A program made the position numbers and the translations under genes. From NCBI GenBank assembly GCA_964188305.1, contig OZ076890.1: a DNA stretch of 64,000 nt; one strand, given 5' to 3'. Each line of letters opens with the position of its first letter. Positions within the stretch are counted from its first letter, which is position 1. The notes beneath the pieces were generated by a model. It made no database searches. It was not told the origin of the DNA and saw nothing but the letters and a program-made list of their open reading frames with translations. Origin of the DNA: Podarcis bocagei (taxonomy: Eukaryota). This document shows, in pieces, positions 4,839-57,000 of this stretch.

Positions 4839-7621
4839 AATACTTCTTGCTTCTTGCCCTCAGAGGATTCAGTGAACAATCATCTTTCAAGTTTCTACCT
4901 TATCAAATATCAGAAGGGTATCAGCAAACACTAGATTCCTTTATTTCCTGGTGTGGAATTAATCCACACTTACTTCAAGCACAGAGGGATATAGAGAACA
5001 ATGTTTTTGAAAGGGGCATTCTAGTCAGCTATGATTTATATAGCTTTCTGTTGCTACTTGCAAGTGAGTCTGATTCTCTAGAGTTTTCTCTGTCCTTTGC
5101 TTAAGCTCGGACCATCTCATTGTGTCCATTTACAGTACAATGGCCAAGAGTCAGGGAAAACTGAGTCTCAACACATTATTTAAATGTGGGGTATGCTGCC
5201 ACCACTCCTCTGTTTGTTTCTGAGGTGATAGTCAAACAATCAAGGCACAAGTGATCCTTAACAATAACACTTTACAAAGGAAAACAGAATTAAGGGGAAA
5301 TATGTGCTAAAAAATTCAGATTTTTTCTCTCATAATAAATTAATTATCATATAACACTCAAATAGTAAATCTTTAATAAGTAGAAACCCTGACACTACAT
5401 TTCAATATGAGCTCAATGTGTTTCAACACAAAGTCTTCATCAGTGGCCTAATAAAAGCACCAGAAACCCCTAAACATAGTGAATCAATAGGCTTTGACTC
5501 ATGGATATAAAACTTTAGAGGAGGAAGGCAAAATAATTACTTCCACTCTCCATTGCAAACAGCTATCTCAGTACAAGCTTTCTAGCCTACAATATAACCC
5601 ACAACCTCCATATAAATTTATCTTCTTTACTCGAAGGCTCCGATGAGTATATGTGAAACCCTGGTATATTTATTTTTTACACATTTGTCTTACACACGCC
5701 CTGCTTATTTTTCAGGTGGAACACTAAGCAATGTAGATATGACACCTAATCCAGAATATTTTGTACTTCAGAAGATATTCCAGGGTATAAAATACATGTA
5801 AACAGTGAAGGCTATGAATGCAGCACACATGTATAAATTCACATACAAGTACACAAACACAAACCTTACCAGGCCACACAACTTGTGTCATCAGAAATTT
5901 TATTAAGTGTTTGACCATAACCAAATAAAATAATATTTACAATTTCCTTTACATAAAGGAAATAAACTCATTCTATAACTGAAAAAACCAGAGAAAAAGA
6001 AATACACTAAACTATAATCTAAGAAAAAGTGAATAAATCTCTAAATAAAACCTGGCTATCTTTCCAGCACATGAACCATAAATGTCACTGCGATTTAGAG
6101 AAAGAATGAAGAATGGAAAAATAAGGAAAAGGGGGGAAAAGAATAATAGCATCACAGATCGAACTCTGAAACATTCTGAACCAAAGAATACCTTTACTGA
6201 TACGTCACATTTATAACAACAGAAACTGATTACAAACTACTTCTCTTGTGTATTTTGCTGTGAAAACATGCAATTTATTCACATGCATTCAATTCATAAA
6301 TTGTGCTGCTCAAGTGCAGTTTGTTCTCAGGAATGGGTGCTTGCATACAAAAAGTGATGTATGTAGTCCACACCCTAATTAGTTTCTCTTTCACACACAA
6401 ATACAGCTTGGTTATCCCTCATGAGGGCTGCCTGGCATACAAATTTGTGCTTAGCTTAGTTTTCACTGTAGCTTTGCAATCCACCCTTATAAAATTAAAC
6501 TCTCCTACATGAAATGTTTCCAATCAGGAAAAAGAACAGAACAAACCAACCAGCAAACAAAACCCCCAGCTGTGTCAGCAATCTCCAGCCGTAGAAATGG
6601 CAAATGTGGTATATGTGTAAATAAATGGTCACCCTCCCAAAATGGTTGCACTGGCCATTTGCTGGTTCAGCCTGCTCACTCGGCACTCCCCTGTTTATCC
6701 GATCTAATGCAATAAAATGCGTAATTAATTTCTAAATGCTTCTGTTGAGCAGTGCAATTTGTCAAGTCGAGTTGTAATAGAATTAAGCTTTTTATCAGCG
6801 ATTAGCAAAAGAAGGTAAAAAAATTAATTACAGAATTGTATGCCTCCCTGCTTCAAAGCCAGGTTTGGGATTAAATGTTTGATAAAGGTTCCTTGGCACA
6901 TTATAAAACATTTAGCAAAATCCGCTCTCCCCCCCACACAACCCCAGCAATTTCTCAAAACTATCTTTGTACACATGCACAATGGGTGTAGCATAAGTAA
7001 TTGAACATTTGTACAAGTTGGTTCAAATTGGACCCAGCCTTCTTCCACATAACTAGAACATAGCAGTTTCCCTGTATTTAAAATGCATGGACTATCTTCC
7101 TAGTAGAGTATGTATATTTCAGCCATTTTGAAAACAGCTGTGCCACCAGTTGTATATTGCTTTTCTGTGAGGAAAGATCCACACCTAAAATGGAAGATAA
7201 ATGTAAGCTAACATGCTAGTTAGATGCTGAAAATGCAACTCCTAGTCTGCGTAAGATGAAACAGCTTTCATGCGAAAGAGAAATAACTTCAGATGTCACA
7301 CTTAAGGGTCATACTGGTTCACTGGAAAATTACCAAAACTTTGGACAAAATTGATAGTATATTTGTGCTTATGAAATGGGGCAAGAAGGAAAAAAAACAA
7401 GCCAAGACAAAGGCATTGGTGTCAGAGACAAGACTGAACATCAACAGACTGGAAAAACTTACACCTAGAGGGGAAATTAGCAATGATTATATACTGCTTA
7501 CTGAAACTAAGCATCTACAGGTGTTTACAAAAGACTTCACAAAAATGAACTGGTGAAATGAAATGAACTAAGCTCACAAAATTAGTTTGGGTTATTTAGC
7601 TAAACACCTTATTCCATAATA

Positions 7622-8012
7622 AGGAAGGCTGTGGAAGAAATTCAGTTTTGTTCACATTTTAATCTAACTCACTACTTCCAAAAACAATGTGTGCAGCTAT
7701 CCTTGGAAATTTGCACTTTCCTGAATATTGCAATGCAATTCTACACATCCACACCAAATACGTTTATTGCAAGAAAATGTGCATTGAAATCCATATATTG
7801 TGGGAAATGACATACAAAAATGCACATTGCTTGCAAAAATATGTATATACACAAACCTGCATGTAAAAACATGTATGTTAGAAGAAAAACACACTAAAGT
7901 GCTGATAAAATTTTGTTAGTGCTTTAAAAAATAATCACAAACTGATGCAGATATGTGGTGAACTGAATTTAAGGTTAGACAAATGAGAAACTGGCAGATT
8001 TGTCCATCCCTG
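7622..8012 (-). mobile_element. Old AT-rich non-autonomous DNA element (AGGGATGG...AATCTGTC family)
   Basis: The terminus GAGAAACTGGCAGATTTGTCCATCCCT is the reverse complement of the start of the 51014 copy. Internal TGCA/ATGCA-rich motifs are shared. Confidence 0.6.
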
Positions 8013-9569
8013 TTATTAGGTGAATTCCATTTTCCAACCTGGTTCCCAGATTTGTTTGAGGACATCAGACCCAGGCAACATGTCCACTTAGTCCATTTCC
8101 CCCCAGTTCTGCTACACTACCACTGAATGCTCTTGCTCAATACCTAACACCCTCACTAACCAGAGAAGAAATGGCAATCCCAACAGTCTGCTCCATCACT
8201 CCACAGTGTTACCATAACATCGTTGGCGAGCCTCCATTTGGATTCACATGTGTGTTGGCCAAACGAATGAGACGCAATGTGGGTAAATTCCTCTCTTTTC
8301 CTCTGACCATTGCCTTACCCATTTGATGAGTGTGACACTGTAACATGAGCCTATACTTCACAGATACCAGCCATGACAGTTTTGCGATCTCCTCTCTTAG
8401 TTATAGTTTTGAACTTCAAAGAGAATGGAAGTTAGTATGACTGAGAACTGTGAGCTGCTCGCTCACACACATCATGCTGCTTATGCATGGCGACCACTCA
8501 CCTAAATGAAAAAAGTGGCTCAAAGTAATTTGTGGACTTGCTCCAAGAATTTCCAGAATATTGATTGTACCCCCGCATCTGTTGTTAATGACTATCCTAC
8601 AAGCAGGGAAAGAAAGGATGAAAGTACAGCACTCCTTAATCAAAGACTGCTTATCCTATTAGCAAGATGAAACTACATAGGTTATCATACATTTATTAGC
8701 AGGATACCTGGAGGAAGTTGCTCTAGATCATTGTTCTTTATGGGAGGAAGAAACACTAATGAGAATTGCTCATGGGAATCGATTGCTTAATAGAGGCTCT
8801 CTCCTGAAGCTTCATCTCCACTCTACTGCACTGCCATGCTAAGGAGGATAGCAGAACAGATCTAGCAGGGCAATCAGTGGTATATTTAGTTCTGAAGATT
8901 ACACTAGCAATATTAACTGCAGCAGCCTAATACTAGGTAAGACCTAGTATTTTAGTGCTAACAACAGTAAGAATAATATTTAATAATTACACTTCGAATA
9001 GGTACCAACATCTTTTAAAGTCTAATTATTTGTTCATGACCCAGCAACAGCAAAGCACAGCTTGTTGCATTTAAACACATACTTTAAGCCTTTCTCAGTG
9101 AAATCAGTGGGATGCATAAAGGAGTTTGGTCCTTGGATTTTGTCCATTTGAAACACAATCCTGTGCATGCTACTCTGAAGAAGAAATTAGCATGAAGGTA
9201 TTCATGCTGATGTAGTAATAACAGTAATAATAATAACAGCAGCAGCAGCAGCAGCAAAATGTTATGTTCAGATCAGCCCATCCCAGAATACCGCTTACCT
9301 TAGCAGTGGGCAGCTTTGCAGGACAGAGCTAGCCCACAGCCACAACAGCCGGGGAATTGCAACCACAGGGAGATGCTCCTGGGTCTCCCTCTGGTTAGAT
9401 AGTTTTGAATTCAGCCTGCCTGCCAGATTGGACCAATGACTCACTCTGGGCTCACTCTGGAGGGTGGGCCTGACTGGGTCCACAGAGGACTCTACCCAAG
9501 TCCACCCCCAGGGGATAAAAACAGGCCCTGCCTCACACCTGGCACCGCAGTACCTTTTGGATGATGATG

Positions 9570-15312: not shown

Positions 15313-15511
15313 AACACAGAAACATAGGAAGCTACCTTATTCTGAGTGAGACCATTGGTCCATCTATAGCTCAGTATTGCCTACCCTGACTGGCAACAAC
15401 TCTTCAAGGTTTCAGACAGAATTTCTCTCCCTGATGTAGCTGGAGATGCCAGGGATTGAATCTGGAACCTTATGTATGCAAAGCAAATGCTCCACTACTA
15501 AGCCATGACCC
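15313..15511 (-). mobile_element. tRNA-derived SINE with CR1-like tail
   Basis: On the plus strand: AACATAGGAAGCTACCTTATTCTGAGTGAGACCATTGGTCCATCTA (tail) and GCCAGGGATTGAATCTGGAACC...TGCTCCACTACTAAGCCATGACCC (tRNA head). Confidence 0.8.
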
Positions 15512-19857: not shown

Positions 19858-21428
19858 GTACAATATTTCTTAGGGGGAAACAGAATTTAAAAAATGCAGA
19901 AACAAGCACATGTGAGGATTGCAAGCAATGAACATTACCTTGAGCCCTTCTCTTTTCAGTTTAGAGTACTGTGTGAGAATATTCTGGATGCTCCCTTACT
20001 TGTGAGAGGCCACAAAGTTTTAGAGAGGGTTATGTTGGTCTTCGCTTTTATACCAGGACACTACCCCAACATCCATGCATTTGGAAACTAAGAAACAAAA
20101 GGGGGTTCACCAATAGTATGTGAGTAGGTAAAGCTTTCTTCTTCTTCCATGTTTCCATGCTAGAGAAGACTAACTTGTTGAACGTCTGTCTTGTACACAG
20201 CTGTTAAATGCAAGGGTGTCTTGCTCTTTTCCATTGCCAATCCTATATCCTGCAAAGAGCTCAGGAATTATCAGTTGTAAACTAATTAGACTTTCACTAA
20301 TTGCTCTTAGGAAGCAATACAACATTCTGTACAAAACAAGGCAAAGTGTTTCAGAAGGTTGTGTGTGTTAAAAGAGATTTAATATTTACAGCAACCACGG
20401 TTCAGGTGCCCATGCTTGGATAAATTCAAGACTGAATTTTTAAACAGCAAGCCATGCATTCTAAAAGCATTTCTTGTGGACATTTATTTATACTTCGTAA
20501 TAATTATAGCAATGTTATCAGCACAGGTCAAGAAGTCACCCTTTGGGGATGGAGCAGCTTTAGCAAAAGAGGGAGATTTGAGTCTTTGACATGAATATAT
20601 ACCCTTTTAAGTGTTTATATCAGCAGCAACAACTCTCAATAATCTGCCTATTTCACACCATGGGTGAGGAAAAAATGAATCACCACTCCCCCCATGTTGC
20701 TCCTAATATCAGCTTAATAGCCTTTCCTGCATTTTCCATAAAGAACCCTAAGATGCCAAGAGAATGGTTGAAGTCAGTGGGCATGACTATGCCCAACTGG
20801 TGTACTCTGAGTAGGATTTCAGAATAAGACCCATATTGATGAGGATCTTCATTTGAATTTGCATTGTTAAAGGTGTGTTTACACACAGGGATGGGGCATT
20901 CAATTAAACCTGAACTAGAAAGAGCATGAAATCCTGTCTCTGTGGCTATCTTTTGTTTTGGGGTAGACATGCTTCTTTTCCAGTCACAGCTACGCTAAAA
21001 TCCTGAATTTCTCAATTTTCTCAAACGGAACCAAGATCTTTCTTCTTCTTTGCTTTAATCTAGAGAAAAACATCCAGAGGCACACACCTACACACTGAGG
21101 AAGAGCTAAAAACAGCTTCAAAATGAATCAGGAAGTCCTCCATTATCTGGGAAAGAGACTTCCTGAAGACTTTATGAAGCCAGTTTTGCATTCTTCCTTG
21201 GGTGCCTGTATGACTAATATTTTTCTATAGCACTCGTCAATCACAGCTCTGACTTCACCCATTAGCTAAGAACATTGAAAGGTATAGACAAGCTCATTTC
21301 TCACCAAGCAATTGCTTACTGCCTGCATATTTTGTTTTGACTCCTCATTTTGCTTCAGACCCCACTTTTTGAAAGAGCTGGATACAGACTTTTTAATAAA
21401 GCGTGTTCTCACTAAAGGAGAGCACATG

Positions 21429-22216
21429 TTGCGGATGGGGCCTAGCAAGACACCCCATAGTTGCCAGGCAGGATAAGATAGAGGGGCCTGGCAAGGATTG
21501 GCTGTTTGTGTTGCTGGGGTAAAATTGATGTTGCCAATTTGGGGGTGGGAACAGAGGTGATTTAAACAAGGTTCACAGCAAGCTGCTTTCTCTTTCGATA
21601 TGGGAACCGGATCACCCGCCCGCCCTCCCTTTTGGGCTTGTGCTTTGACCTTGCTATGCCTGTCATGGGGTCGTCCGCCTTGGTGCGGGGGCCTGGTAGG
21701 AATTTTTCCATTTGGCTGATTAGTGTGTGCCATTTGGTTTTTGCCTACTGCGTAGCAAATCGTCACAACTTGTAAGGTTGGCGGTTAGGCATTGGTTTAA
21801 ATTGGTTGGTGGAGGGGTATGGATTGGCTGTGCCTGCCCCTCCAATGCTGCTGCTGCATGGGAATTCCGTTAAAGGAATTCTGGGGCTTACCATCCTCTT
21901 GTCCAAACCCCTGGAATCGGGTGCGGGCCGCGTAAGACCCCAAGGAGCAAGCGGGGAGGAACTGAAGGGTCTGTGTCGCAGCCCCAGTTGCCCTGATCTT
22001 GTTCCTCCACACTGACTCTCGCTGGAATCCGGGAGTCAGTGCTGTCCCCCAAGGCGGGGGGGGACAGCTAGTCATAACCAATGCCTAAGCAACCACTCAC
22101 AATTTGTATGTTTAATAAAGTTGTGGCCAAAATTATGCCAAAAACCTTAAACAAAAATTTATGAGTGATGTGTGAGTTATTGGGGTAGGGGTGTTTTGGG
22201 GGACCTCAGCACGCAA
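21429..22216 (+). mobile_element. Non-coding LTR-like or DIRS/Ngaro-like interspersed element, copy A; structured, with an ENE-like motif
   Basis: GC/CpG-rich island bounded by TTGCG...CGCAA, with TATA-like TTTAAA at 21561-21566 and AATAAAGTTGTGGCC at 22114. Ordered motifs are shared with 33485-33855 and 56365-57000. No TSD found, so the class is unresolved. Confidence 0.7.
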
Positions 22217-32965: not shown

Positions 32966-33484
32966 TCTTTCTATTTTTACTGTCTATCCTTTTGGAGAAA
33001 GGGTGTGTGTAGCATCTTTGAGCATAGTATACAAAACACATTTCTTATTCATTTTATAACAGTTGCTTATCTCACCCTCCCAATACCCTTCTTTCCCCCT
33101 TTTAAAAGACATGCATTATGCAGGGTAGTAAATGACTGGAAAAGGAGGTGCAGAAAAAACTATAAATTGTAGATGACAAACCTGAAACATGGGTGCCACA
33201 AGTGGAATAGGCAGCAACGTGGTAACAGGATCAGTACTGTTTGTGGATTAGATATGAAATTGAACCAGGCATGCACTGGTGCTTTTTTTTTTTTTTTTAC
33301 TTGCTCAGTTGCCAGGGGGGCACCTATGCATTGTAGCACACACTGCAGTGGTGCTATATCATACTTTGGACAAATTGTAGCAATGCCATTGGAGTTTTAA
33401 TTATCTGATTTGAAATATGAATTTGTTGAGTTGCTAATAGCCAGATACCTCTATGCTTGTGGGCTACCCAATGGCATGTGCCTT

Positions 33485-33855
33485 CAGACAGATTGGGCCT
33501 TTCTGGGGGTTTCGCCTACCTCACGGCAAGTGTCACAACTTTATGGTGAATCCATTGGGCTGGATCTTTAATTGAACCAGACAGGGGGTGCCCCTTGCTC
33601 CTTGGGATCAAGGTATCCCTTTAATGGGATCCTGGGGGAAGTGGTTTTATCCTGATGCCCAGATGGGAGCTGACAGGCTATAGGACACCAAGTGGTGACC
33701 TTGAGGGGGTTGCCCTGATTTGATGTTCTCCATAGGGCAACTCTTAACCATGTCTAGCATCCACCAGCGATCAAGCTGGTTGATGTCAGGATATGCATCC
33801 AATGCTGATGCCAAAACCTGCTAACTTCTATAATCAATAAAAGTTGTGGTCTGTA
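33485..33855 (+). mobile_element. Non-coding element copy B (5'-truncated relative of 21429-22216)
   Basis: GGTTTCGCCTACCTCACGGCAA.TGTCACAACTT (33508-33541), ATCCCTTTAATGGGAT hairpin, GTTGCCCTGAT, CCAATGC..GCCAAAACC and AATAAAAGTTGTGG (33836-33849), in the same order as copy A. Confidence 0.7.
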
Positions 33856-35794
33856 TGAAATCCCGATATGGTTGTCTTTAGTTACAACTAACATCATGAC
33901 TGCCCCATCCTATCCACAGATCCATTGTGCCTGGGCCCATAAGTAAGCTTCATTGAGTCAATAGGACTTACTTCCAGCTAAGTGTGCAAGACTTAGTTGT
34001 GATGCATGTGTGAAACATGGATCCTTATAGGATTGGTCCATCTAATTTGCTATTGGCCTCACTGACTGGCAGTGACTCCAGAATTTGAGGCAGGAACTTT
34101 CCCTACCCAAAGACACCAGATACTAAATGTTGGACCTTCTGAATTCAAAGCATTTGCTCCACCACTGCAAAAGGAGAAGCTTTGAAAATAACAACAGACA
34201 AAACAAAACTACTATGACTGAGATGAATCAGTGATAACACTTGGGTCAATTCCATTTTTTCCCCTGCAAACACAAGGATGCTGTTTTCCTCTAAGGCACT
34301 GAAACCCTCTTGTGTTTCTGAGAGAGGCCTCAGTGGTGGTTGGATTTCCAAGCAGCTTGCCAACATCACTGGTTCTAAAACTAAAATTCCAGGGGCAGGG
34401 TAGTGGTAAAATGAAAAGCATATGAGTGTGCGTGCTTCAACATTACAAGCTGGTAGATAATCCTTAGTAAACAAATACGCTTTGTTCAAACACATGCCTA
34501 GAAATTCATAAATATCAAACTGATTCCATAGAGCTGAAGGGAGTTCCCCCTTCAATTTTGAACTATAGTACAGTTGCTAAGAAAGTACCCTACCAATCTC
34601 CCACTTTAATACTCTTGCTGTATTGACATTGACTCTTTCCCCTATCTTTTGCTTTGAAAAAACAGGGATCAATCAGCTAAACTAAACAGTTTCAACTGGA
34701 GAAATTTCAGTATAGCCTACTCCTCCTCTTCTAATGTCAGGATTGTAACCAAATTGTTTTGTGGATACAATCATTTTCCATGGTTGCAAAGAACCTTTGG
34801 GGAAGCAGTTCAGTTCTACCATGCACCCAGCTTCCTTTCATGTTTACTGTGTATTTCGTGTGTATCACATGTGCTCTCTCTGTATGCTTTTCCTGGGGCT
34901 ATGATCATAAGAAGTTTCCTTCCCTGTCACATGTACTATATGTTGAAATCTGTGATCTACTATTAATAAAAACAGGTAGTGTGTGAACTGAAAATGAGAG
35001 TGGGTTTTGAAAGCACATTTTTAGAAACACAATAAATGTTTTCCTTTCATTTCCTTTCAAATGTGCCTGCATTCTCAATGTTTCATTTTTCTTCTTTTTA
35101 ATGGTTAAGAAAAACTGATAACCAAAATTTTTAGATTCCCAATAGAAATAGATATACACACACCGCTACCAACAAGCCCTGGTTTCATTCATCAAAACTT
35201 GCTTTCCTTTTTTTTAGAAAATAGAAAGAATTTTATCAGGGTGGAAAATCTTTCATAATTTTTTATTTGGAGGAATGATTGTTTGAAAAAAGAAAACTGT
35301 TTCCATTAGAAAACTTTTGATGGACTCATGGTAGATGTGACTCTGTAGGTAGCAATATACTTAGAATGAAGCAATACATTTAGAGGAGAGCCAGGGAGGA
35401 TAATCAATCTAGAGGCTGGCTTATCAGATGAGAGTGTTGGTCTTCTGTGCATTTATGAGGGATAGACCTGCTTAGTATTTTGCTCATGATGTGTTCTCCT
35501 ACCTCTGTGAACCAAAATGACTCTCCTCTGATTCTAGAGTATGCATCTTAATTTAGTTTGCTCATAAATACCTTGTTAAGCAATAGTCCAGCCTCTAGAG
35601 ATCACACCAAGAGTTCAGTTTCACACCCCTGTCAATTCTCTGTACTGTACCCAAGCGAAAGTAAGGAGGTCCAGCTTACACTGGCCATAAAGTCTATTAA
35701 TCTCTGAATGAATGTGTATTTTTGCAACATATTCAGCTCCATCAGCAGTGTAGCATTTCCATTATTTTCCTTAAGGCAAGCCATGTCAAGAGTA

Positions 35795-36567
35795 CAGTGG
35801 TGCCTCGCAAGACAAAATTAATTCGTTCCGCAAGTTTTTTCTTCTTGTGAGTTTTTCGTCTTGAGAAGCACGGTTTCCCATAGGAATGCATTGAAAATCA
35901 ATTAATGCGTTCCTATGGAAACCGCTTGCCAGGCTGGCGGTGTGGAGAAGGGCTTTTCTCCCCACCGCAAGCCTTCAGGACAGGTACGGGAACAGAGGGG
36001 AAGGGGCGCAGCGCTTCTCCTCTGTTCCCGGGGCTTGCGGTGGGAGGAGGGTTTTTCCTCCCCACCGCCAACATTCAGAACAGCATTCTGAATGTTGGCG
36101 GTGGGAAGGAAAACCCTCCTCCCACTGCAAGTCTTCAGGACAGCCTTCCGAAGCCTGGCGGCGGGAGGAGGTCTCTCCGCCCCACCGCCAGGCTTCGGAG
36201 CAGCCCTCCGAAGGCTGGCGGTGGGGTGGAGAGACCTCCTCCCGCCGCCAGGCTTTGGAGCAGCCTTCCGAAGGCTGGCTGCGGGAGGAGGTCTCTCCGC
36301 CCCACCGCCAGGCTTCGGAGCAGCCTTCCGAAGGCTGGCGGCGGGAGGAGGTCTCTCCGCCCCACCGCCAGCCTTCGGAGGAGGTCTGAGGACAGTGGGG
36401 AAGACGCGCTGCGCTTCCCCGCTGTCCCGGAGATTTCCCTATGGGCTTTTGTCTTGCGAAGGAAGCCCATAGGGAAATTCGTTTTGCGAAGCGCCTCCAA
36501 AATGGAAAACCCTTTCGTCTAGCGGGTTTTCCGTCTTGCGAGGCGTTCGTCTTGCGGGGCACCACTG
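35795..36567 (+). mobile_element. Young Tc1/mariner-type MITE (CAGTGGTGCCTCGCAAGAC family) with a GC-rich internal hairpin array
   Basis: TIRs CAGTGGTGCCTCGCAAGAC / GTCTTGCGGGGCACCACTG, TA TSD (35793-94, 36568-69) and repeated subterminal TTCGTCTTGCGA motifs. Confidence 0.93.
36141..36380. repeat. Four 60-bp tandem hairpin units; unit 2 has an inverted core
   Basis: Units start at 36141, 36201, 36261 and 36321: CAGCC-TCCGAAG(C/G)CTGGCGG-core-CCGCCAG(G/C)CTTCGGAG. Confidence 0.95.
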
Positions 36568-44977: not shown

Positions 44978-47248
44978 TATTCTATACTATATTAAAACCA
45001 TAGACAAGAAGAAGCTAACCACTGTGGGACTGTATTATTAATACTCTGTATAACTCAGTCTTCTGTAAGCTACCTATGCTAGTCAGAGAAAGGTCACAGT
45101 TAATGCTCCTAGAATTCATGGTTCTGTAGACAAGAGCTTTTACCTTGAGACACCAACCCTAACATTGTCTCTGAATCTAGATTACATGTCAGACAGACAG
45201 CAGTTTTAGGTGAGCCCTCTTTAGCCATTTTAAATTCTTCACTTCTATGCAAACAGTGCAAACTGAACAGAGGAAGCCATCTTTAGCAGCCAGTGGCCCC
45301 TGCATAACCCCTTCTGAGTTTGGGTGCTGATGGGGGATGTATGTTCATGGTGCAACAAAGATCAGGTGGAGGCTGAGTTTATCTGAGCCAGAACTTCAAT
45401 ACAAAACTTCAATATGAGGCTGCAAATGGTTAGTGCCATTTGCAATATGGCAGCGGGTGTGCGTAAAAGGCCTGAGACATTTATGCAAATTGCAGCAGCT
45501 GTGTTTACAGTATCCACACAATTCTGTAGTGCCCATGCACACTCTCAGAAGCAGACACATGGGATGTTTCTGGCCCAGGGCATGCGTGCAGGAATCCTTT
45601 TTACAGAACTGGCCAGTGGCCACAAATCCTAAATGGGTATAGAGTAGGCTGGGAGGCAGACCTATCCTTTGCAGAATTGCTTCATTTAAGTCCTTTCCCT
45701 GTTATGATGTGTCCTAAATTCTTTTGGGGTCTAATTTCCTACTGAAAGAAATGCACTAGCATCTTGCGTTTGTTGCAGCCACATCTCAAGTGAATGTTAA
45801 GGCCTGACAGTCCAACAAAATGACCCACTTCTTGCAGACTCAGACAGAAAGGCTCCGCTTAGGCCCTAGGAAAGTGTCTCTAATAAGGCAATTCGTTAGT
45901 TGTGTCGGCTGCTCCCCTCTCAGCTATCCTTCATTCCTTCTCTCCCTCCCTCAAGCTAGTCATTAATGCAGCAGGAACAGAGGAAAATGAAGCCGTTGGG
46001 TTCGGTATATATTACTGAGCTCTGTGTAGTGTGTATAAGACCATTATTTAGACACCCAAGTCCCCAGTGTGTTTTGATCACACCAGTCCAGCAGGAAGAG
46101 CTGTCTAATGGCTTGGTAGCTGGAATACATGTGTGTGCACGCTCTCGCTTCAGGAGTGCCTTTTACCAGCTTCATCAGTTGCTCCATCTGCACCCCTTCT
46201 TGGAAAATAAGGACACAACTACTGTTTGCTGGCTCTGGTAACTTCTCAGTTTGACTATTGCATGTGCCACTGCATATACCCTCCAACAGGTCAAGGAGAA
46301 AACGGGGCGGATACCTTTTCCAGGATACACTCCCATGTGAGTCCCGTTATCCGTGCAAGAGCACGGCTCCCCAAAATGGGATGTCGTGACAGGACAGTTG
46401 AGGGATATGCAATTATCTTTGAAGGTGCTCTGTCCAAAATGTAACTGTATGATTTTTAGCTAAAACAACTTCAATAAAATTTGTTTTGGGGCTCAAAGTT
46501 CTATTTTAACCGTTAAAGACCTATGTTGTCATGGTAGGGGCTTCTTTCATATGTAACTCCCTGGGTTCTGAGATCAAGAAACTAGGACTTCTGGCAGATG
46601 CTTCCACCGTGTCAAGAACTGCTGGCCTCTGTCTAATGATATGAGCCTTGCCGTTGCAGCTTCTCAGTAAAGTGTTAAGGACTGGGGGCCATTGTCCCAT
46701 GTGGTGAGCAGTGTCACTGAAAAAACTCAGGGAACTTCCTCCTTCTTGAGCAGTAAAGAGCATTAGGGGGATTCCTGTCTCGGCGGTGCTTTGATTAGAC
46801 AGCAAAACCTACCTGACCACTTGTGTTGTCATTTCTGGCTCCTGGCTTGTTTGACTGGCCTGCCTTCTGGATTTCCCTTCTGTGCTCTGGGCCCACAGCC
46901 CAGCTCTGACACACAGCCTGACCAAAGATTGGTTTTCAACAAAAATAGGGCTGCTTCTCTGTGGTGCTCCTTTGAATTCCCTCTGTATAGATACTTACTC
47001 GTTTTGCATGGCTGGTCCTTTCAGAAAGGCTTTCTTATTTAGGTAATATTTTGTCATGTTTTGTTGTTAATTATCTTGCAGTATTTAAATGTTTTGTTTG
47101 TACTGTGTTATTGTCCTCTTATTGATTTCAGAGCCTGTTTAAAAAAGGGGATTTTTTTTTTAATAAAGTAAAAGAGAGAGAGAGAGAGAGTGGGGAATAA
47201 ACAAGATGGAAGAAAGCTTTATGCCCATGCTAGAGAAGCAGGACATAT

Positions 47249-48082
47249 TTAAAACGGTAATGATACAATGGGCAAGAGATTTTGGATATAATATACAATT
47301 TGATGACTGGGAAAAATTATGGAAGGAAAACTTAAGATTTACTGCATGTACGGTGTTAAAAGAAAATATCATGAAAATGTTTTATAGATGGTATATTACA
47401 CCGGTAAAATTAGCAAAAATGTATAAAACCTGTAATAAATGTTGGAAATGTAAAGAAAAAGAAGGAATGTTTTATCATATGTGGTGGGAATGTAAGAAAG
47501 TGAAGAGCTTCTGGGAGATGATATATAATGAGATGAAAAAAATGTTGAAGTATACATTTGTTAAGAAACCAGAAGCCCTACTTTTAGGCATTACAGGAAA
47601 GGAAATAAGAAGGAAGGATTATAAACTTTTTCAATACGCAGTTACACCAGCAAGAATTCTACTGACCCAGAAGTAGAAGCAAGAGGAAATACCGACGAAA
47701 GAGGAATGGAGGATGAAATTAACAGACTATGCAGAACTGGACAAGTTAACAGGGAAAGTTAGATATCTTCGAGACCAAAAGTTCATCGAGGACTGGGGGA
47801 AATTTGTGGAATATCTGAAAAGTACATGTGAAGTACAAACAACGCTAGTGGGGTTTAAAGAAGCACTGTAAAAACTGAGGTATATTGTTAAATGAAAATG
47901 GATGATTGGAGGGGGGACTTATGGCAATAGAGAACAGAAGAAATGCGTAAGCAAAAGTTAAATATGGATGATTGTCAGAGAAGTTGAAGGAAGTCCAAAA
48001 GTATGGAATTTGTGAAAATTTGGATCAAAATTGTATATTTATGTTAAAAATTAATAAAAAGCATTTTTTAAAAAATAAAGAG
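47249..48082 (+). mobile_element. L1 LINE, 5'-truncated (ORF2 C-terminus plus 3' UTR)
   Basis: The translation has KMFYRWYITP and the CWKC-x7-H-x4-C knuckle followed by FW. There is one premature TAG (47674-76), the natural stop at 47869-71, AATAAA at 48053 and an A-rich tail. The 17-bp TSD AGAGAAGCAGGACATAT is at 47232-47248 and 48083-48099. Confidence 0.95.
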
Positions 48083-55200: not shown

Positions 55201-56364
55201 GCAACAAGGACATGGGCGGCAGCAATCCGACAGCAGAGCAAATTGGTCAGGACAGAGTGGATTGATCTATCTGGGAGAAATGAAGACACAGCAGAAACTC
55301 TGTTTTATGAGTGGGGATGGCTTTTGGCCTCTCTTACACTTGGCCAAGAAAGACAGGAGTATAACAGCAGCAAGGACATATTGTGAATCAAGCCAAGCAT
55401 CCTAGTGCCAGATCCCTACCTACAGATTAGTTGTCTGAAATGACTGTCTGTGCAGACAAGCACAGTCACCCAGCATATCTTAAGAGTATACTACTAGAAC
55501 TGCGTTCATAAGGCAAAAAGCCACCACATGACTGCTCTTGGTTGTTGCTTTTTTCCTAGGCTTTCCCCCTTCAATGTCTTCTGCTTCCTTTTTTCCATAG
55601 TACTAGCCGGACTGATGACTCTGTCCTCCATATATGCAAATCCAAGGCACATCTTGGTTTCATTTCAAACACTCATATTTAACAGCAGGAATAAAAATAA
55701 CAGAATGTCCTACCTTGCGTTTGCATTTGTGCAAAAGCATTTACCCAGGACCTATCTTGTACAAAGTGCTGAACAGAGCACAGAAGTAGCTTAAGTGCAA
55801 TCACATGTAGAATAAGGGGAAGGGCTTACAGGTCACTGACATGACTCTCAGACACACCTGATAGTCTTCATTTTAGAAATAATAAATCCAGGTAACTTAT
55901 TAAGTGTGCATATAAACCTGCTGCCACTGTCATCACTGGCTCTCTTTAATGAGGTTCTCATTAAGTCGTTTCAGCTTTGGAACACAGCATCCCACCTCCA
56001 TTGGGATGCAATGATTTGTTCCTTCCTGTAATGCAAAATTAGAAGCTAAAGAAAAAGTTTCCATGTCTTGGAAAATGGAATGTTGGGAGTCACATACAGG
56101 ACCCTCAAAGGTATTGGTTAAACAAATCCTGGCTACACTTTCACTCACTTTCATTCACTAAAACACTCACTTATCAAAATAATACAAGGATTTTCCTGCA
56201 GATTTCTGAAAGATATTTCATTTCACAAGCATAGCGACATGAATTTTTGGTTCATAATCATTTAGAACATCATGCAGGTGATTCCTTGCCACCTCAGGCA
56301 TGAAGTCTGCAGCTGATGTGGGTAAGACTGAGGAAATGAACACAAGAATCGGTACTGGGTTGAA

Positions 56365-57000
56365 TTAGGCCACACCTTTATTGATTACAGGTAAGAGTAG
56401 GTTTGGCTAAGTCATTGGCCAAATTGTATCTGGCATCAGAACGCCTACATGCTGGCTGATAGGAACCCAGTGGATCAACTGTGTGCTGGGGAGTCACCCA
56501 AAAAATGGATTAGCTGCCACGACCCCGTATGGACCTGCCATTCGGAGCTGTTTTGGCCCATTGGTCTGCAAGTGTGGACTCCCAGACCGATTCACGCCTC
56601 TTGGATTCCTTTAACTGGGTACCTGCATGATGAATATCCATCAAAGTTGTGACAGTTGCTATGAGGTAGGTAAAAACCTTTACACTGGTCAATTTGCTTG
56701 CAGGAGAAAATTCCTCTCTAGCCCCAAATACAGCAACCGATTAAGCACAGCAAGGTTCTTACATCAACTTGCCCACTCCCCCATTGAGGGGGCCCCTAAC
56801 AGTCTGGGTGAGTGGGAGGTAAATTCTGCATTGGTCCCCAAGGGTGGGCAGGGCACAGCCCCCATGCCCATGCCCCGATAGGCTTGCAGGCAAGGCCCAC
56901 CCAAACAATGGGTTCAGCATGGCCAGGGGAGGCCAACATCAAATGGCCATCCCCTCCCCCATCTATCCAGGACAAGGAGTTTATCCCTGGATCCAGCCAC
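56365..57000 (-). mobile_element. Non-coding element copy C (relative of 21429-22216)
   Basis: The minus strand reads AGGAATTTTCTCC...AGGTTTTTACCTACCTCATAGCAACTGTCACAACTTT...GTTAAAGGAATCC...CCAATGACTTAGCCAAACC...AATAAAGGTGTGGCC. The 5' boundary is approximate. Confidence 0.7.

Follow-up and report, generated by a model that had tools for sequence, protein, structure and literature searches.

The window analysed here, a stretch of 64,000 nucleotides from contig OZ076890.1 of the lizard Podarcis bocagei, contains on its plus strand, at 21398–22216, an element copy (copy A) that is, judging by its sequence, a solo A-X-B remnant of an Ngaro split-direct-repeat retrotransposon. The copy is repetitive, with 45 matches among 40 scored of 4048 candidates, and the solo A-X-B form, to which copy A belongs, accounts for 25 of the 30 best matches. 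The order in an Ngaro element is A1-ORFs-B1-A2-X-B2, and five loci 99% identical to copy A (L031–L035) retain A1, the internal part, B1, A2, X and B2; the split direct repeats (A1 ... B1-A2-B2) were confirmed in these loci and in L166–L170. Repeat A (21398–21615) is 100% identical between A1 and A2 in L031–L035, and repeat B (21779–22216) is 99–100% identical between B1 and B2 in the same loci and in 16 of the 40 hydrolase loci fetched. The spacer X, placed between A2 and B2 (21616–21778, 163 nt), is unique and occurs once per element. The CCAAT (about 21534–21538), GC and TATA-like (about 21560–21567) motifs of A are located some 50 nt upstream of its end, with the CCAAT and TATA-like promoter motifs found in A2 of 16 complete ends; repeat A would be a Pol II promoter, with transcription starting near its 3' end.

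The related intact elements supplied the coding evidence. A reverse transcriptase (RVT_1) scored above the Pfam cut-off in L170 and L168 (E 4e-12 and 6e-14), and integrase families matched the tyrosine recombinase of these elements just under the cut-off (E 5e-6). The SGNH hydrolase ORF gave Lipase_GDSL_2 at E 2e-4, below the cut-off, in L168 and no hit in L170; the DGVHL motif is present in all four hydrolase ORF ends displayed. The ORF fragments of L031 itself gave no Pfam hit. Ngaro-like elements of the order DIRS, such as Xenopus DIRS-53_XT, are described in the available part of the source as A1 / B1-A2-B2 with gag-like, RT/RH, YR and SGNH hydrolase ORFs (PMC9210276), the same split direct repeats and ORF set as in the element presented here. 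The Ngaro assignment is made because the layout and the RT, integrase-like and GDSL/SGNH frames of the related intact elements match that description, and the element would be Ngaro rather than PAT by its hydrolase ORF only.

In this genome strict patterns count 7396 B ends and 2142 X ends of the family. Outside it, no relatives were found in metagenome scans using the hydrolase and an RT alignment or in one viral scan. Among the 40 hydrolase loci, 16 carry both B1 and B2, and 19 of the 24 without B2 stop at the B-end motif. The A-internal-B and A-X-B forms may have arisen by recombination at either B|A junction, both of them possibly recombinase sites. In one locus (L167, oriented positions 6738–8499) A1 and B1 are separated by only about 400 nt, with complete repeats 99% identical; this miniature element is possibly a non-autonomous form. 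Elsewhere in the window, positions 35880–36520 hold tandem and inverted repeats, rich in GC, in which both strands have long open frames; similar sequence was found in L281. A weak tRNA match (29.8 bits) at 15441–15510 on the minus strand is probably a SINE head. Two further open frames (1811–2404 on the minus strand and 47167–47676 on the plus strand) resemble what we take to be C-terminal fragments of LINE reverse transcriptases. By its repeats the host resembles a squamate.

Spacer X begins with four C3 runs at the A/X boundary (21615–21629), a short-loop G-quadruplex motif on the minus strand and the sole one of its kind in the window. It was found in 17/17 complete 3' ends and in none of the 24 clusters from older searches of the copy B and C type (described below), and in five elements with a mapped A1 the runs start at most 2 nt from the A end. 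A minus-strand G-quadruplex placed there could halt the synthesis of the second strand and thereby set where A ends; presumably the runs could also be read as Sp1/KLF or poly(C)-binding sites. A 3' splice-site-like motif (pyrimidine tract plus YAG) at the start of X, present in 33 of 59 clusters, was discarded: it is absent in the lineage of the window and overlaps a hairpin arm. It looks strong in L213 and L273.

Further along X, an ENE-like motif (21695–21749) is formed by a lower stem (21695–21700 with 21744–21749), two facing U5 runs (21703–21707 and 21738–21742) and an upper stem starting from 21708/21737. This motif and the other helices were followed in 81 clusters, extracted with up to two mismatches allowed in the P0 anchors (see below), which biases them towards conservation, and in an alignment of 30 chosen rows of these clusters (A4), enriched for P0 variants. 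Both ENE stems are paired in 82–99% and show changes on both sides, the G-C pairs closing the loop are retained in 27–30 of 30 rows, and the upper arms pair better with their cognate than with swapped partners in 23/29 (permutation p=0.0001, relatedness uncorrected). U-runs occupy both strands of the loop, U5/U5 in copy A and with the shorter run at least 4 long in 40 of the 48 clusters that could be parsed (33 of 81 were not). The shorter run is 3 in 6/17 complete ends and 2–3 in the L213/L273 lineage. The whole domain is closed by a basal helix PX (21651–21658 with 21751–21758, 21651–21758 overall, with a hairpin at 21667–21693 inside), paired in 86.8% of cells without any both-side change. 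Its duplex energy is lower than −5 kcal/mol in 51 of the 60 clusters (of 81) that could be parsed. Chance hits aside, Rfam gave no relevant match, whether at the gathering score or with E values as high as 10. A double-domain ENE (dENE) was rejected, the motif having a single U-rich loop and an upper stem that holds just a 2x2 pyrimidine mismatch. A blunt triplex of the MALAT1 type was also set aside: Rfam found no tRNA-like element downstream and the A-rich stretch after P0 is lineage-specific. A poly(A) signal and read joints from X to B, which bear on whether the putative ENE lies upstream of the tail of its own RNA, are both present.

Downstream of this motif the first-pass annotation had proposed two nested long-range helices, and its motif positions proved exact with the single exception of the inner 3' arm, which lies at 22076–22088 and not at 22077–22089. 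This inner helix (P1, 5' arm 21785–21797) comprises 13 bp without a mismatch in copy A, as had been claimed, and a perfect long-range helix of 13 bp appeared in 0/400 dinucleotide shuffles of 21740–22140. Its outer pairs show both-side changes in 14 and 4 of 30 rows, and the cognate arms are better than swapped ones in 68/81 clusters (permutation p=0.0001, relatedness uncorrected). A short helix of lineage-specific pairs, P0.5, spans the X/B boundary (21776–21780 with 22090–22094), with mean energies of −9.0 kcal/mol for cognate and −7.9 kcal/mol for swapped arms and the cognate better in 52/81 (p=0.0001, relatedness uncorrected). In A4 90.3% of cells are paired, against 26.6–52.8% with slid partners (30 rows). 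The looped-out parts had been said to differ greatly between copies; they are in fact homologous between lineages and hold conserved, partly covarying hairpins, such as that with a GUUAAA loop at 21860–21882, two of whose pairs have changed on both sides, in 12 and 9 rows of 30. The interior of B (21798–22075) is a multi-hairpin domain without an Rfam match, possibly serving in packaging or RT binding. In the hydrolase region of the parent lineage of copy A (L031, 7341–7625 and 7864–7916), pieces of a diverged B bounded by P1 arms were observed besides a 340-nt duplication, which suggests template switches at this structure.

The closing helix P0, the centre of the earlier proposal, pairs 21762–21771 with 22118–22127. 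The complementarity was confirmed as 10 bp in copy A, one U.G pair included, with a conserved 8-bp core that begins directly after the AATAAA hexamer (22114–22119), and it is kept, as the proposal demanded, among lineages whose B repeats score about 43–50% against each other. In A4 P0 is 94.7% paired with the U.G pair in 30/30 rows; the U.G is kept in 50/52 clusters and in 22/24 rows (one of them mis-anchored) from 30 loci picked on other motifs. On the minus strand it would be a C.A mismatch. The outer U-A pair with the hexamer is found in 43/52 clusters and is the least conserved end of the helix. The arms are 83–100% conserved per column, a sampling-enriched column excepted (0.67), and the flanks 33–60%. 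Covariation is almost absent, with one cell showing a both-side change in 30 rows. The swap test gave p=0.31 over all 81 clusters and p=0.0006 in the 52 unselected ones, a value not taken as covariation, the columns having one double change. A C in the 3' arm occurs in scattered copies (163/7396 B ends); of the 30 copies examined, 19 bear X, and 18 of these lack a compensating partner. The 20 copies with a G in the 5' arm comprise 14 G.U, 3 G-C and 3 unscorable pairs. Copies with a G at position 7 carry the matching C in 3/17 scored cases, as against 163/7396 B ends overall (with slightly different patterns), an excess that speaks for the fold preferred below. No lineage with a compensated P0 was found among the 20 5'-G copies, the 163 3'-C copies (30 examined) and 9 double variants. 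Dinucleotide shuffles of 21740–22140 in the single copy gave a long-range helix of at least 10 bp and at most one G.U in 37/400, and a partner for the fixed arm 22118–22127 arose in 8/5000 shuffles of the upstream sequence. P0 in a single copy is therefore unremarkable, and what stands out is that it is conserved across lineages.

Two other copies in the window had been cited as evidence that the device is conserved in three diverged versions. Copy B (approximately 33473–33941, plus strand) and copy C (approximately 56284–56972, minus strand) turned out to be decayed relics of related lineages and not independently maintained devices. Copy B is devoid of the ENE 5' strand and of part of a P1 arm; copy C is devoid of the P1 5' arm and has an A.G mismatch in place of one inner pair. 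The predicted P0 probability is about 0.001 in both.

Folding models placed P0 in a defined context. The region 21590–22150 has a folding z of −4.45, and with 120 nt before B and 30 nt past the hexamer start P0 reaches a probability of 0.87–1.00 in 17/17 complete ends. When X is complete and the RNA stops at the predicted mature end, it is 0.69–1.00 in 7/7 other lineages; in copy A with all of X it drops to 0.05, a local hairpin in B capturing the 3' arm. When the fold is extended to the end of B, as in uncleaved RNA, P0 is at most 0.04 in 4/7 lineages. Because its probability is high at the mature end and falls in uncleaved RNA, P0 looks like a post-cleavage state in these models, sensitive to the boundaries chosen. 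RNAalifold on A4, the check that had been suggested, did not predict P0 and paired an upstream GGCC with a 3' GGCC, which we read as an arm of a local hairpin, in an alignment enriched for P0 variants. The plus strand folds 12–29 kcal/mol lower than the minus strand, with more G.U pairs, in 6/6 cases, and the z-scores overlap (14 shuffles each).

The 3' end signals are themselves well conserved. UGUA (22105–22108 in copy A) occurs within 14 nt of the hexamer in 69/81 clusters, and the first CC[A/G] lies 20–22 nt past the hexamer, again in 69/81. The rules that generally hold for 3' processing in vertebrates predict cleavage at a CA (22139–22140), followed by a GU-rich element (22162–22178), inside the interval of about 22135–22150 that had been expected. 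B1 and B2 have identical poly(A) signals, whereas X holds the ENE-like loop and the 5' arm of P0, both of which therefore precede only B2. The shared 3' strand of B (22090–22113) can pair with X at B2 (P0.5) or with the end of the hydrolase ORF at B1. In this last pairing (P0') the ORF end, including its stop codon 27–30 nt before B1, pairs with the strand following P1 and encloses a small, conserved and covarying hairpin that ends 1–4 nt before B1. Over 20 B1 clusters (3 of 23 excluded as truncated or mis-anchored) the mean P0' energy is −26.3 kcal/mol for own arms, −21.3 for swapped and −12.9 for shuffled ones (permutation p=0.0001, relatedness uncorrected), with own arms better than swapped in only 10/20 rows. 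In 7/20 clusters P0' reaches −28 to −37 kcal/mol and extends over the UGUA position and the first bases of the hexamer. The 12 nt upstream of the hexamer are less open at B1 in 11/17. Mean predicted access of the hexamer is 0.58 at B1 and 0.51 at B2, without a clear difference, so that occlusion is unsupported as a general selector of sites. The earlier claim that P0 partly occludes AATAAA stands insofar as the last two A's do pair; this is the least conserved end of the helix and P0 hardly forms in 4/7 lineages when uncleaved RNA is modelled, so occlusion of AAUAAA by P0 is weakly supported.

Raw reads of four RNA runs from one organism matched the element (87–135 reads each), mostly at 85–95%, which indicates a related species. 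The reads cover X and the conserved parts of B, with X-to-B joints in all four runs; the element is present in RNA, perhaps passively. No pile-up of read starts or ends was seen across the four runs, and none of the rows listed for this related species ends in poly(A). In one run 25 reads extend past the expected cleavage site, and both strands are represented in three of the four. Two P1 pairs seem to be compensated in one lineage, as suggested by unaligned ends of separate reads. Among indexed sequencing runs no RNA run is on record with the element.

In the reading that we prefer, to which we give an even chance, B is looped out by P1 and P0.5, cleavage lets P0 close, and this holds the tail about 25 nt from the ENE, which would protect only RNA that ends at B2 and carries the B|A junction. 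Transcription would begin near the end of A and cleavage would follow about 21 nt after AAUAAA in B. An RNA reading through B1 to B2 would be the sole carrier of the B|A junction needed for replication, and in it P1 and P0.5 would fold away about 300 nt before P0 closes upon cleavage. The tail would begin some 13 nt after P0, itself 12 nt after the ENE, reducing a distance of about 390 nt to about 25, and the poly(A) could dock into the U-rich loop as U.A-U triples and resist deadenylation. RNAs ended at B1 would be devoid of X and hence of such protection. At B1 the pairing of the ORF end with the 3' strand of B may weaken that site, and in some lineages it would also extend over UGUA and into the first hexamer bases. 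The fold first proposed, which would act in RNA and carry the 3' end to the ENE-like loop, is favoured by the lineage-wide complementarity and by a U.G pair kept on the plus strand in all 30 rows of A4. The element architecture, the high P0 probabilities at the mature end of other lineages, the better pairing of P1, P0.5, P0' and the ENE upper stem with their own partners and the precedent of the Evade ENE (PMC12501189) likewise speak for the preferred reading. This reading is weakened because P0 shows almost no covariation and its 3'-arm C variants are uncompensated in 18/19, P0 has a low probability in copy A, the U-runs are short in some ends and P0' beats swapped arms in only half of the rows; likewise because no poly(A) ends are among the read rows listed, 25 reads of one run extend past the expected site, hexamer access is similar at both sites and z-scores are similar on both strands.

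[quoted passage not shown] The primer of reverse transcription in the DIRS group is stated as unknown in the available part of one source (PMC7192593), and this explanation finds support in the covarying hairpin 1–4 nt before B1, in C3 runs at most 2 nt from the A end in the five mapped elements and in 17/17 complete ends, and in a B interior structured far more than looping-out requires. Self-priming from P0 or from the B boundary was however rejected, as the X nucleotides beside B are inherited per lineage (in one frequent lineage they differ from its own B1 context) and the U.G is never corrected; paired U-runs closed by G-C pairs would also be left unexplained. The explanation is compatible with protection of the tail, and a combined one may be offered more tentatively, as a two-state RNA switch in which the 3' strand of B is captured either by the ORF end (B1, weak) or by X (B2, clamped), with X and the pre-B1 hairpin acting as signals for the start and stop of reverse transcription.

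That P0 is a by-product of arms conserved separately, for instance as protein-binding sites, with a 3' arm that mostly pairs locally, appears unlikely. The missing covariation, the uncompensated variants (18/19), the frequency of helices of this size in shuffles (37/400) and the local hairpin that wins in copy A would all suit it, but the arms are far more conserved per column (83–100%) than the flanks (33–60%) and are complementary over 8–10 positions, in register outside two covarying nested helices. An action of P0 in DNA, as an internal complementary region (ICR) of DIRS type or as inverted recombinase sites, is very improbable, even though the element encodes a tyrosine recombinase and DIRS cDNA is single-stranded and requires an ICR, according to the portion of the source at hand (PMC7192593). 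The split repeats are direct and not inverted, the recombination junction joins the B end to the A start about 90 nt beyond P0, and an ICR complements the termini exactly (over 88 bp in DIRS-1, in the same portion of PMC7192593), whereas P0 has 10 bp with a fixed plus-strand U.G. The first-pass annotation had itself raised an ICR as a possible DNA-level role for the complementarity; only direct repeats and this short helix were found. A DIRS-1-type element was rejected on the same grounds, inverted termini and an exact internal complement being absent.

The module is a real, lineage-conserved RNA module, in a setting where ENEs in retrotransposon 3' regions are already known. If the preferred reading, protection of the tail at B2, is true, poly(A)-binding ENEs would extend to a vertebrate tyrosine-recombinase element, here with the tail delivered over a long distance. 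Such protection could account for the preference of the element for the RNA that its own copying requires. The module also bears on how split-direct-repeat elements pass one poly(A) signal for an identical second, and on the priming of reverse transcription in the DIRS group, stated as unknown in the accessible part of PMC7192593. The family is large, with its thousands of B and X ends, so that any 3'-end activity could touch host transcripts; were the two-state switch true, each of thousands of solo A-X-B copies would be a unit for a PAN-like structured RNA of about 550 nt in a vertebrate genome. Searches at the level of literature listings for Ngaro or DIRS with ENE, triple helix or polyadenylation, with the tables of Tycowski 2016 (which may list DIRS-group ENEs) and most subscription papers lying outside their range, found no report, and those for Ngaro with lizard, solo or priming found, also at listing level, nothing on this module.

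The comparisons that follow are limited to the available portions of the sources cited. The description of Ngaro in PMC9210276 does not, in that portion, mention RNA structure, an ENE or a choice of poly(A) site at the terminal region. SIRE, the short A2-spacer-B2 remnant of the split-direct-repeat element VIPER of Trypanosoma cruzi (PMC6681497), has a unique part of about 30 bp, whereas X has 163 nt and is structured. ENEs have been reviewed for plant, fungal and slime-mould elements and stickleback retroviruses (PMC7583470, PMC13541005). The closest in placement is the ENE of Evade (Copia93) of Arabidopsis, located in a unique spacer before the 3' LTR, where it raises RNA stability and transposition (PMC12501189); in both, a unique spacer that precedes the 3' terminal repeat contains a U-rich internal loop. 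Evade, however, is an LTR element with four U-tracts and a demonstrated function, while here a single loop is known from sequence, and, unlike Evade, it occurs together with long-range helices that reach the poly(A) site and with two such sites in competition. The ENE of KSHV PAN RNA forms five U.A-U triples (PMC7583470, PMC13541005); here 3–5 would be possible depending on the lineage. In the present loop AA is added on the 5' side and (C)G on the 3' side, and some 390 nt separate it from the tail. The HTLV-1 Rex response element and the HIV-1 polyA hairpin direct retroviral poly(A) site choice by RNA folding (PMC3694450, PMC2645353), and, as in the module proposed here, the fold spans a distance or hides a signal and thereby selects one of two terminal repeats. 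The duplicate retroviral sites lie at both ends while those of Ngaro are both at the 3' end, and the Ngaro fold would join the tail to a stability motif, whereas the retroviral fold joins the hexamer to its downstream element.
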